Below are positions 15,115 to 17,595 of a stretch of DNA of 64,000 nucleotides, piece after piece; position 1 is the stretch's first letter; every line of letters starts with the position of its first letter. The translations under genes and the position numbers were made by a program. The notes below the pieces were generated by a model. That model did not search any database, was not told the origin of the DNA, and saw only the letters and a list, made by a program, of their open reading frames with translations. The stretch is from an uncultured Thermococci archaeon (GTDB lineage: Archaea > CAYQAE01 > CAYVLA01). Location: NCBI GenBank assembly GCA_964549615.1, contig CAZJVP010000090.1:17418-81417 (forward strand), read 5' to 3'.

Positions 15115-15711
15115 TCAGCTCCCGGCCCCGTAAACGATGAAGAGGAAAGTCTCCACGCCGGCGGCCACGATGAGGAGCAGCAACACGATCAAGAATGAGC
15201 CCAGGACCTTTCTCAGGTCAGACACAAGGATTCTGGTCGGCGCCTCGCCCTCGCCCTTCATCCAGTACCGTACGACGAGGAAGGCATCGCTTCCCAGAAG
15301 GAACCCGAACGATCCCGCCAAGAAGGTCGCTGGGAGTTCGAATGCGCCGTGGGGAAGGATGGCAGTCAGAAAGTTGAGAACCGGCTTCTCCGATCTGGCA
15401 AGGACGATGCCCAATGGCAGCCCGTTCACCAGTAATATGAAGGCGGGGGGTATCCCGAAAACGATGCCCCCGAAGGCCATCAGCACGCATATCGAGAGAT
15501 TGTGAACCAGTATCTTTGAGAAGATCCTGCCCGGCCCCCGTGTGTTTTCGAAGTCCGCCTGCATCCTCTCCGCCACGATATGGTGAAGCCTGTCAGCGAG
15601 GGCGGGCTTCAAAGTGTCGATCATGACCCCCGCGACAAACCCGACCAGGTATAGGCCGATCGCTGCGAGGATCATTTTCTTCCTCAGGGCGGTCTTTCTT
15701 CCCACAGACAT
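15115..15711 (-). CDS. SpoIIM/DUF95 family membrane protein
   Basis: ILVHN, NGLPLG, ILPHGAFELPA, VAAGVE signature; start uncertain (15711 or 15674). Confidence 0.85.
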   Translation of the reverse strand: MSVGRKTALRKKMILAAIGLYLVGFVAGVMIDTLKPALADRLHHIVAERMQADFENTRGPGRIFSKILVHNLSICVLMAFGGIVFGIPPAFILLVNGLPLGIVLARSEKPVLNFLTAILPHGAFELPATFLAGSFGFLLGSDAFLVVRYWMKGEGEAPTRILVSDLRKVLGSFLIVLLLLIVAAGVETFLFIVYGAGS

Positions 15712-15821
15712 TCCAATGGTCGCCAGATTTTGAAATAGATATTCCCAACGATGCAATCTATTTCAGAATTCCCACAATCTATTCTTTGGGAATGTCGCGA
15801 GGAAATCGCAACCGTCTGAGC

Positions 15822-15838
15822 AAAAAAGCTATTTATAC
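15822..15838 (+). promoter_or_regulatory. Archaeal BRE/TATA promoter upstream of the putative ncRNA and dnaG
   Basis: AAAAAAGCTATTTATA: purine-rich BRE followed by TTTATA at 15832-15837. Confidence 0.65.
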
Positions 15839-15864
15839 CCGCCACGGATAACTATAATGCTACA

Positions 15865-16410
15865 CGTCATTGGGTCCCACGGAGAGTAACTGGTGAATCC
15901 CGAGCGATGATCCGTCGGACAACCCCGCGTAGCAACAGGGAACGCTGACACGACCCTCCGCGAGGACACCTGGGCAGAGGGAGGATCGACCGCACGAGGA
16001 AGCCCGGGGGTTAGTGCCGAGGGGTACAGGCGCTCCCACGCCGGGGAGGCGGCGTAGCAAGAGGTGTATAGGGAGGTTCGCAAGAGTCAAGGTAATCTCG
16101 ACTCGGATCACTTATCGAATCGGGTAAGGGAGGATGAAATCGAACTCAAGATAACCTTGGGGCGCAAGAGGGACATCGAAGGGATCGGTGCCGCTGATCT
16201 TTGGCCGTACTCCGCATATCTTCACGGATGGAATGGTTGGGTAGTCACAGGACACGTGGCCTGCGCTTAGGACGCTCATCGATATCGATGCTACGGGGAC
16301 TCGTGAGCGCGCACATCCGGGCGGGGATCATGCGGCAATTCCTGAGATCTCCCGAGCAGCGCTGAGAAAGCCTCCTTCTGTCGTTTCGTCTCCGAGCCGG
16401 GATTACGATA
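15865..16410 (+). ncRNA. Putative large structured RNA or 5' leader upstream of dnaG (family not recognised)
   Basis: No credible ORF; promoter upstream; long-range complementarities (15872-78/16296-302, 15896-902/16398-404, 15907-13/16325-31) and several local hairpins. Confidence 0.55.
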
Positions 16411-16425
16411 TGGGAAGTGGTGATA

Positions 16426-17595
16426 ATGGCGATGGAAAAACGCAAGGAAGGCGAAGGGCAACCTGAAACGACCACCACGAAGTATGAGATTTACGCTCAG
16501 ATCGAAACCGACGGGGTCGTTGAGAAGCCCGATGTCATAGGCGCCATCTTCGGCCAAACGGAAGGCCTTCTCGGGGACGACCTGGACCTCAGGGAGCTCC
16601 TCAAGACTGGGCGCATCGGGAGGATAGAGGCGGAAATAACCTCAAGGGGCGGGAAGTCGACGGGCATCATACGACTGCCCAGCAGCTTGGACAAGATAGA
16701 AACTGCAATACTGGCGGCGTCCCTCGAAACCGTGGACAGGGTTGGCCCGTGCGAGGCCCGGATAAACGTCCTTCGCATCGAGGACGTGAGGGCCGCCAAG
16801 AGGAGGGTGCTCGTGGAACGTGCCAAGGCGATACTGAGCAACCTCTTCGAGGACGTTGCGATAGACACCAGCGAGATCAGCAGCGAGATAAAGCAATCCT
16901 TCAAGGTCGGGGAGATCACCAAGTATGGACCTGAGAACCTTCCCGCTGGGCCGAGCGTGGAGGAGTCGGACTCGCTCATAATTGTGGAGGGAAGGGCAGA
17001 CGTCCTAAACCTTCTGAAGAGCGGGATCAAGAACTGCATCGCGGTCGAGGGCACCAACATACCGAAGACGGTCGCGGAGCTTTCCAAGAAGAAGACCACG
17101 ATAGCCTTCGTAGACGGGGACAGGGGAGGCGAGCTGATCCTGAGGGAGCTATTGCAGGTCGGCCACGTTGACTACATCGCACAGGCCCCGCCGGGCAAGA
17201 GCGTCGAGGACATGACGCGCAAGGAGATAATCACCGCCCTGAAGAACAGGATCACCGTCGACCAGTATATGTCCCAGCGGGAGAAGAAGAGGATTGATCA
17301 GAGCCCGGAGATGCAGAAGTTCAGGGAACTGCTCCGGTCGATTCAAGGGACCAGGAAGTCCAAGCTTCTGGACGGCGAGCTGAACCCGATCGGAGAGGTG
17401 GACGTCTCGAACCTGATTGACAGCTTCAAGGGTTCGCAGGGAGTGGTCGCGGTGGTGTTGGATGGGATCATCACGCAGAGGCTCATAGATGTGGCTGCGG
17501 ATGCCAACGTTCGCTACCTGGTCGGGGTCAAGATCGGCAACGTGACGAAGAAGCCGCCCAACCTGAGGATCCTGTCCCAGCGGGACCTTTCCTAG
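16426..17595 (+). CDS. dnaG: Archaeal DnaG-like primase / exosome-associated subunit
   Basis: GVVEKPDVIGAIFGQTEGLLG, LETVDRVGPC, TOPRIM motifs IIVEGRADV and DGDRGG; GGTGA RBS at 16419-23. Confidence 0.96.
   Translation: MAMEKRKEGEGQPETTTTKYEIYAQIETDGVVEKPDVIGAIFGQTEGLLGDDLDLRELLKTGRIGRIEAEITSRGGKSTGIIRLPSSLDKIETAILAASLETVDRVGPCEARINVLRIEDVRAAKRRVLVERAKAILSNLFEDVAIDTSEISSEIKQSFKVGEITKYGPENLPAGPSVEESDSLIIVEGRADVLNLLKSGIKNCIAVEGTNIPKTVAELSKKKTTIAFVDGDRGGELILRELLQVGHVDYIAQAPPGKSVEDMTRKEIITALKNRITVDQYMSQREKKRIDQSPEMQKFRELLRSIQGTRKSKLLDGELNPIGEVDVSNLIDSFKGSQGVVAVVLDGIITQRLIDVAADANVRYLVGVKIGNVTKKPPNLRILSQRDLS

Follow-up and report, generated by a model that had tools for sequence, protein, structure and literature searches.

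What is encoded in the 660 nucleotides (nt) that precede the gene of the archaeal DnaG protein, a primase and exosome subunit, in an uncultured Thermococci archaeon? The gap (15757–16416) is flanked by a SpoIIM-family gene (minus strand) and by dnaG (plus strand) in a 64,000-nt window, which is the whole stretch of DNA analysed here (assembly GCA_964549615.1, contig CAZJVP010000090.1, positions 17,418–81,417), and it contains no convincing open reading frame (ORF) in this genome, referred to as G000. A preliminary description of the window had proposed that the gap is filled by a single structured non-coding RNA of about 550 nt, which might be a novelty of ribozyme size, might be bound by DnaG or might act as an autoregulatory leader. 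One part of this proposal was borne out, since a structured non-coding RNA does begin right after a promoter (a BRE, the recognition element of transcription factor B, and a TATA box) upstream of dnaG. The gap, however, is not a single large RNA but has three parts: the promoter, a structured RNA of 179 nt (15859–16037), and a decayed gene for a DUF167 protein. The RNA is in all probability a divergent, two-motif orthologue of HgcG/Pab40/Pf7/Afu4, that is, a trans-acting H/ACA guide RNA. Real as the region is, most of it is ordinary: a guide RNA of a known family followed by a wrecked small protein gene.

The GTDB phylum of G000 comprises only five species genomes, and the family of G000 contributes four of them (G000 to G003). 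The stretch is present as a single copy in G000. With blastn the element was found in the three other genomes of the family (75–79% identity, confined to approximately 15821–16150) and in none of 37 genomes outside the family. Six matches came from metagenome contigs that were scanned with a pattern, and four of these are distinct new sequences. The RNA is thus kept in 4/4 family genomes and on four distinct metagenome contigs, and these eight loci are the basis of the alignments. From the eight distinct sequences RNAalifold predicts two domains, the first of which begins at G15859. This nucleotide sits approximately 26 nt after the centre of the TATA box, which is presumably, by the spacing between TATA box and start in archaeal promoters, where transcription begins. 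The fold comprises 49 pairs with 97.4% of the cells paired. Compensatory changes are seen in six of the 49 pairs as compared with 1.6 ± 1.0 in column shuffles, of which 0/500 reach six, and with 0–2 in slid controls. From the eight family sequences, and none from outside the family, a covariance model (R1) was built, with which, filters off, the family loci were aligned together with nine HgcG loci of other families (84 kb). In this 17-row alignment, which was fitted to R1 and is therefore biased towards structure, 38 of the 49 pairs are compensatory (16.3 ± 2.8 in shuffles and 12–21 in slid controls) and 94.4% of the cells are paired (76.8% in shuffles).

The relationship to HgcG (RF00064) becomes apparent through an intermediate sequence. 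As described in the parts of the literature drawn on here, HgcG is an archaeal H/ACA guide RNA with three motifs, designated Pab40 in P. abyssi, Pf7 in P. furiosus and Afu4 in A. fulgidus (PMC2377435). G004, the phylum's fifth genome, is AT-rich and belongs to a sister family; it has a GC-rich island (L025:1154–1433) upstream of a DUF167 gene, in the slot equivalent to that of the window RNA. The island carries all three H/ACA motifs, and its score with the Rfam HgcG model, 50.6 bits (E 4.9e-13), is significant though below the gathering threshold of 77 bits. R1 recognises the island weakly, with a score of 12.2 bits and, for 4.7 kb, an E of 0.013; this alignment partly mis-pairs the motifs, and the stronger matches of R1 in other HgcG loci are relied on instead. 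In our sample of relatives HgcG was found at E ≤ 1e-3 in 15 of 41 genomes, in five of them above the Rfam cut-off. When R1 was run, filters off, on 16 HgcG loci (49 kb), there were 12 matches at E < 1 in 10 of the 16 loci, the best being those in L033 (42.9 bits, E 7e-9), L031 (42.1 bits), L030 (35.7 bits) and L029 (29.8 bits); L029 and L030 also pass the Rfam HgcG threshold. In the R1 alignments the first hairpin of the window RNA falls on motif 2 of HgcG, and motif 3 is matched by the second, inner hairpin. The likeness to motif 2 can even be seen in plain sequence: the window and L030 both read UUGGGUCCC..GAGAGU..GAAUCC..CGAUGA..CAACCC.

The two hairpins, designated A and B, each consist of a lower stem, an internal-loop pocket and an upper stem (Table 1). 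For archaeal H/ACA RNAs the portions of the published work considered here give lower stems of 7–9 base pairs (bp), a distance of 14–16 nt that separates the ACA box from the closing pair, and 10 layers for a productive "GA stem" (PMC4652768). The lower stems of A and B, with eight and nine positions, are within this range. In both hairpins the tandem GA/GA pairs are invariant and lie beside a 3-nt bulge, forming a kink-turn (K-turn). Counted from the pair that closes the pocket up to the second G.A pair, the stack has 10 layers in B and, if C15876–G15918 is the closing pair, also 10 in A; with the same closing pair the distance to the ACA box in A is 16 nt, which is inside the published range (stack layers and ACA distances were counted by hand on mapped coordinates).

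The linker after the first ACA box pairs with the tail after the second. The resulting helix, P4, encloses motif 3 and leaves the second ACA box within an internal loop. In the 17-row alignment 8/8 pairs of P4 show changes on both sides and 96.2% of the cells are paired. L033, a locus from another family, builds P4 from unrelated sequence (L033:1706–1807). The small RNA (sRNA) probably ends at the 3′ strand of P4 or a few nt beyond. An enclosing helix of this kind is not mentioned in those sections of the published accounts of Pab40 that were available to us. An alternative in which P4 itself serves hairpin B as lower stem and the junction forms the pocket was considered and rejected: that "pocket" varies, and the trinucleotide following P4 (ACG, ACA, ACC or CCC) is not conserved.

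Which uridines might be addressed was examined by scanning all U residues of the 23S rRNA (contig C46) and of the partial 16S rRNA of G000. Strict scans, in which pairing had to run without a break from the pocket's top, yielded nothing for either hairpin and later weak sites only. The looser rules then used (one irregularity, at most three unpaired guide nt) were set after the data had been seen, and the ranks are supportive rather than blind. For hairpin B the top site is U2009 of 23S rRNA in the loop of helix 69, GGGGAUAAC-UA-UGAUCCUC. The motif 3 guides of G004 lead to the same helix-69 site with 5 + 9 bp and a score of 14, the next best of 527 U sites having a score of 7.5. For Pab40, whose three motifs are described in the source consulted in part, motif 3 is reported to direct the modification of 23S U2016 in stem-loop 69, an assignment made in vitro (PMC2377435). 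In the region of L043:2982 and in L048–L051, the stem of helix 69 contains an A-U pair in all four family genomes (GGGGAUAAC..UGAUCCUC) versus a G-C pair in G004, and the 5′ guide is GAGGACA in the family of the window versus GAGGGUCA in G004. Judged from these sequences, rRNA stem and guide look as if they had in part co-evolved.

In the case of hairpin A, the guides GGUC and AACCC select GGGUU-UA-GACC as the first of 442–527 U sites in G001–G004, with 9–10 bp, and the guides of a Thermococcales-type copy (L026), read by hand, also fit this site. The equivalent of P. abyssi position 2678 is named, in the part of the source used here, as the expected target of motif 2 in Afu4 and Pf7 (PMC2377435), and the GGGUU-UA-GACC site is probably this equivalent. 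At 23S position 2681 (C46; region of L043:3651) the sequence is GGGUUUAAACC in G000 versus GGGUUUAGACC in G001–G004. The change, which could reflect either a genuine substitution or a variant of the assembly, adjoins the predicted pseudouridylation site and weakens the guide pairing in G000 alone. A bipartite complement of 6 + 7 bp between hairpin A and 23S 1111–1135, with a 7-nt spacer, was set aside as non-canonical. As for the genes themselves, the 16S rRNA gene is divided over two contig ends (C46:41–678 and C78:1–672), and the match on C78 is in three pieces (model positions 4–496, 528–592 and 614–674), where small insertions or local divergence are possible. The contig with the 23S gene also carries, approximately 1.5 kb downstream of it, the gene for RNase P RNA (C46:5546–5886, minus strand).

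These findings suggest the following function. The promoter at 15822–37 would drive the transcription of a small trans-acting H/ACA guide RNA, with predicted ends at 15859 and 16037. Each hairpin would bind L7Ae at its K-turn and Cbf5-Nop10-Gar1 at its lower stem and ACA box. In the ribonucleoprotein (RNP) thus assembled, each pocket would pair with 23S rRNA on both flanks of a uridine, which would then be converted to pseudouridine. Hairpin B would direct the enzyme to U2009 in the helix-69 loop and hairpin A to U2679 at the GGGUU-UA-GACC site in domain V (both in the numbering of G000).

Three metatranscriptomic runs from three studies contain one short contig each, covering 15880–16021, 15880–16036 and 15880–16046; no contig covers anything outside 15880–16046 in these runs, an absence that is not evidence. 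The contigs fit a stable small RNA that ends near 16037–46, which in runs lacking a DNA-run control is a weak hint. Their common start at 15880 could stem from contig assembly where strains vary, or it could mark a real site of processing. Adapter-like loose ends on X1 suggest a short insert.

Several points weigh against the assignment to HgcG and the function deduced from it. The Rfam HgcG model has no match in the window even at E ≤ 10, and none in the four family genomes at E ≤ 1e-3; because the model misses the family, membership rests on the intermediate sequence and on our own model. Only motifs 2 and 3 of the three HgcG motifs are present, there being no room for motif 1 because the promoter abuts the first hairpin. 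The K-turns were identified by eye rather than with a tool. In hairpin B the distance between ACA box and closing pair is 17 nt, one beyond the published 14–16 nt, and the box sits between two helices, with P4 directly after it, which is atypical for an ACA bound by Cbf5. Its pairing with helix 69 amounts to only 4 bp + 7 bp with one bulged rRNA A. Hairpin A needs two to three unpaired guide nucleotides atop its 3′ strand. At its presumed site the 23S rRNA of G000 reads GGGUUUAAACC, one guide pair is lost and the site falls below the pairing limit of the scan, and it is U2040 (3 + 7 bp) that ranks first in this genome. All three RNA-library contigs begin 21 nt inside the predicted 5′ end at 15859, and contigs can neither show the ends of an RNA nor prove its transcription. 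Finally, there is no terminator between the sRNA and DUF167 in the relatives, which leaves some probability to a function as 5′ leader.

Table 1. Features of the dnaG upstream region (window coordinates)
Feature	Position	Strand	Evidence or remarks
Hairpin A, aligns to HgcG motif 2	15859–15937	+	RNAalifold, pair counts, R1 alignments to motif 2 of L030, L031, L033
Hairpin A lower stem	15859–66 / 15926–33	+	8 positions
Hairpin A pocket, 5′ strand	15867–76	+	guide GGUC at 15873–76
Hairpin A pocket, 3′ strand	15919–25	+	guide AACCC at 15921–25
Hairpin A upper stem	15877–83 / 15911–18	+	
Hairpin A K-turn	tandem G.A 15884–85 / 15909–10; 3-nt bulge 15906–08; apical stem-loop 15886–15905	+	
Hairpin A ACA box	15935–37	+	invariant, 8/8 sequences
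P4 5′ strand (GGGAACGCU)	15938–15946	+	begins right after first ACA
Hairpin B, aligns to HgcG motif 3	15954–16028	+	fold, pair counts, R1 alignments
Hairpin B lower stem	15954–62 / 16015–23	+	9 positions
Hairpin B pocket, 5′ strand (AGGACA)	15963–68	+	invariant, 8/8
Hairpin B pocket, 3′ strand (GGUUAG)	16009–14	+	invariant, 8/8
Hairpin B upper stem	15969–75 / 16002–08	+	
Hairpin B K-turn	A.A 15976 / 16001; tandem G.A 15977–78 / 15999–16000; bulge 15996–98; apical stem-loop 15979–95	+	
Hairpin B ACA box	16026–28	+	invariant, 8/8
P4 3′ strand (GGCGCUCCC)	16029–16037	+	17-row pair counts
BRE (A-rich) and TATA box (TATTTATA at 15830–37), sRNA promoter	15822–15837	+	kept in 8/8 aligned loci
DUF167 (yggU) gene remnant, pseudogene	16064–16270	+	comparison with intact relatives, tblastn
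dnaG, archaeal DnaG primase / exosome subunit	16417–17595	+	NCBIfam NF003108, 519 bits vs cut-off 300; Toprim domain (Pfam)
SpoIIM-family gene	15115–15756	minus	Pfam PF01944, E 5e-26
Palindrome TCGCGA, nearly invariant	15795–15800	.	8-locus alignment; one locus has TCGCAA

The surroundings of the RNA are the same in all loci: SpoIIM-like gene (minus), conserved element, dnaG (plus). The promoter that the preliminary description had claimed is present and conserved throughout, and dnaG is preceded by a GGTGAT ribosome-binding site. Approximately 22 nt upstream of the BRE there is the palindrome TCGCGA, which could be the site of a regulator or a piece of a divergent promoter for the SpoIIM-like gene.

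Between the element and dnaG, G001, G002 and G003 have an intact DUF167/YggU ORF of 91–92 amino acids (aa) (PF02594, E 1e-16 to 5e-19), which also matches TIGR00251, and tblastn aligns the corresponding stretch of L016 and L018 to these DUF167 proteins over 85–90 aa in a single frame. Compared with these intact relatives, the copy in the window has suffered two deletions, of 1 nt near 16100 and of 2 nt near 16158, has lost the GKAN motif and is unalignable in its distal half; with tblastn only fragments in two frames are found (E 0.016 and 2.4). The frameshift near 16100 is also found in L014 and L019, which are its two closest relatives among the metagenome loci and carry premature stops. There is no other DUF167 match in the G000 genome at E ≤ 1, and because the decayed copy thus has no second copy beside it, the sublineage of G000, L014 and L019 has lost DUF167. 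It is also because of this decay that 16060–16410 lacks a convincing ORF. The earlier statement to that effect is therefore true for G000, but in the relatives the 3′ half of the region holds a conserved DUF167 ORF.

The neighbourhood of guide RNA and DUF167 is not restricted to the family of G000. In 8/17 HgcG loci of other families DUF167 and/or a Toprim protein or DnaG is encoded directly downstream. DUF167 directly follows HgcG in L030, L031, L032, L033, L037 and L038 (in L030 and L033 it was missed by tblastn with four queries and found via ORF listing and Pfam); a small Toprim protein follows HgcG in L040 and DUF167 in L032 and L038; and full DnaG follows HgcG in L039. The neighbours identified among the remaining 9/17 loci are a Ham1/RdgB, a TRM5/TYW2 and a PIN_5 gene. 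In L035 a Ham1/RdgB gene occupies the DUF167 slot, and in bacteria the Ham1/RdgB gene is a neighbour of yggU. The link of the RNA to dnaG is positional: the conserved neighbour is DUF167, followed in several lineages by Toprim or DnaG. Where measured, 7–27 nt without a T-run separate the RNA from the start of DUF167. Since this leaves no space for a separate archaeal promoter, sRNA and DUF167 are likely to be co-transcribed.

Archaeal C/D-box sRNAs occur in untranslated regions, where they share a transcript with the neighbouring mRNA. In the same manner, the sRNA may come off the 5′ end of an mRNA precursor, from which it would be separated by the 7–27-nt gap. We know of no described case of a co-transcribed H/ACA sRNA, although no search of the literature was aimed at such cases. 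One may go further and propose that in several archaeal lineages HgcG-type sRNAs are the 5′ part of one transcript shared with DUF167 and, frequently, with a small Toprim protein or DnaG, that these proteins act on the RNA or RNP (e.g., in its release or trimming), and that P4 serves as a processing or stabilising signal. This proposal is tentative, and we think it unlikely to hold; if true, it would provide the first functional context for DUF167/YggU, a family of unknown function, and an example of an archaeal H/ACA guide matured out of an mRNA leader. Among the titles and abstracts of the DUF167 literature that were listed, none links the family to an archaeal sRNA.

Co-transcription could also mean that the conserved 180 nt function above all in cis, as a 5′ leader (riboswitch or protein-binding element) that controls the translation or stability of the DUF167-dnaG mRNA. 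The repeated adjacency of RNA and DUF167 in several archaeal families would agree with this, and GUAGC by the start codon might compete for the 5′ GCUAC, a pairing that was found by eye and fails in L003. We nevertheless hold such a leader to be improbable. The RNA shows every part of the H/ACA anatomy, is related at profile level to a guide RNA known from biochemistry, has invariant pockets with complementarity to rRNA, and is highly conserved in the sublineage with the decayed DUF167 (G000, L014 and L019), all of which argues for a guide that acts in trans; that the RNA-library contigs do not reach the downstream region points weakly in the same direction.

Far less can be said for one structured RNA of about 550 nt (15865–16410) with long-range pairings and a pseudoknot, be it of ribozyme size or associated with DnaG and the exosome. 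This reading, which has almost no chance of being correct, is already largely refuted. It can draw on the absence of an ORF across the entire gap in G000 and on the complementary heptamers quoted in its favour, which do exist where they had been located. However, when the 556-nt stretch is folded as one, its minimum free energy is like that of dinucleotide shuffles (z −0.49 for the plus strand and −0.56 for the minus strand). There are five perfect 7-mer inverted repeats whose arms lie 100 nt or more apart, versus 7.7 ± 3.4 in shuffled sequences, a count equalled or exceeded by 243/300 dinucleotide shuffles. The 3′ partners of both long-range pairings (16296–302 and 16398–404) fall where no alignment with any relative is possible, which is the case for everything 3′ of approximately 16150. 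In 5/8 distinct loci (G001, G002, G003, L016 and L018) the position is taken by an uninterrupted DUF167 frame. The checks that the preliminary description had itself suggested gave mixed answers: comparison with relatives revealed conservation (approximately 15821–16150) and covariation, but only in the 5′ part; metatranscriptomes from three studies supplied contigs, but these cover 15880–16046 only and end at 16021–16046; and Rfam has no direct match in the window, but the 5′ part reaches HgcG via an intermediate sequence. The RNA thus makes up only about 180 nt of the supposed unit, the remainder being DUF167 pseudogene and dnaG upstream region, and for a divergent HgcG/Pab40-type H/ACA guide neither a novelty of ribozyme size nor binding to DnaG nor autoregulation is supported.

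With respect to other known RNAs, there is no Rfam match at gathering score across the whole 64-kb window, and in E-value mode 15700–16500 gave noise only (mir-232, E 0.1; Pistol, E 0.64). RNase P RNA and the RNA of the signal recognition particle were rejected, both being encoded elsewhere in the genome (C46, 174.5 bits, and C72, 186.1 bits, respectively). A reading of CGAUGA and CUGA as C/D boxes was rejected by eye, CUGA not being kept in G000 or G002.

That the conserved stretch is a small-protein gene, sense or antisense, is very improbable: there are antisense ORFs of 83–84 aa in the window (15829–16083 and 15860–16111) and of 83–97 aa in G000 and G001, but stops interrupt each sense frame in 8/8 sequences, all three antisense frames are stopped in L004, L014 and L019, every alignment gap is 1–2 nt long, and the substitutions are patterned as in paired RNA columns.

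What can be learned from a divergent HgcG orthologue? In a deep, uncultured lineage of archaea, clear orthologues escape the Rfam HgcG model, whose seed comes from few lineages, and therefore the lack of an Rfam hit is weak evidence for novelty in such a lineage. New, in a modest sense, are the two-motif form of HgcG with an added helix that buries the second ACA box, the apparent co-evolution of the helix-69 stem of the rRNA with the guide, and the recurrent gene order HgcG-DUF167-Toprim/DnaG, which hints at the function of DUF167. None of these points overturns the current understanding of H/ACA RNPs.

Among the known systems, HgcF/Pab35 (RF00058) and HgcE/Pab105 (RF00060) share with the window RNA the H/ACA architecture and, as far as the sections used here report, the function as guides for rRNA pseudouridylation (PMC2377435; PMC4652768). 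They differ from it in that neither family appears in the Rfam scans and in that their targets, where given in these sections, are others. Much closer is HgcG/Pab40. Here, too, each motif is a hairpin with pocket, K-turn and ACA box, and, by the portions of the published description considered, motif 3 is directed to the helix-69 loop (PMC2377435) and motif 2 probably to the GGGUU-U-A site in domain V. The window RNA apparently starts at the first base of its first hairpin, as does Pab40, which in addition has a 3′ extension according to the same kind of partial account (PMC4652768). The differences are that the window RNA is without motif 1, which in Pab40 targets 23S 2588; that it has the extra helix P4 around motif 3, with the ACA box of this motif in an internal loop; and that its motif 2 has a true K-turn with an apical stem-loop. 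In Rfam score and in number of motifs the window RNA thus falls outside RF00064, whereas in homology and in its predicted targets it falls within, as it does in synteny, the HgcG loci of several lineages having DUF167 and Toprim or DnaG downstream as well.

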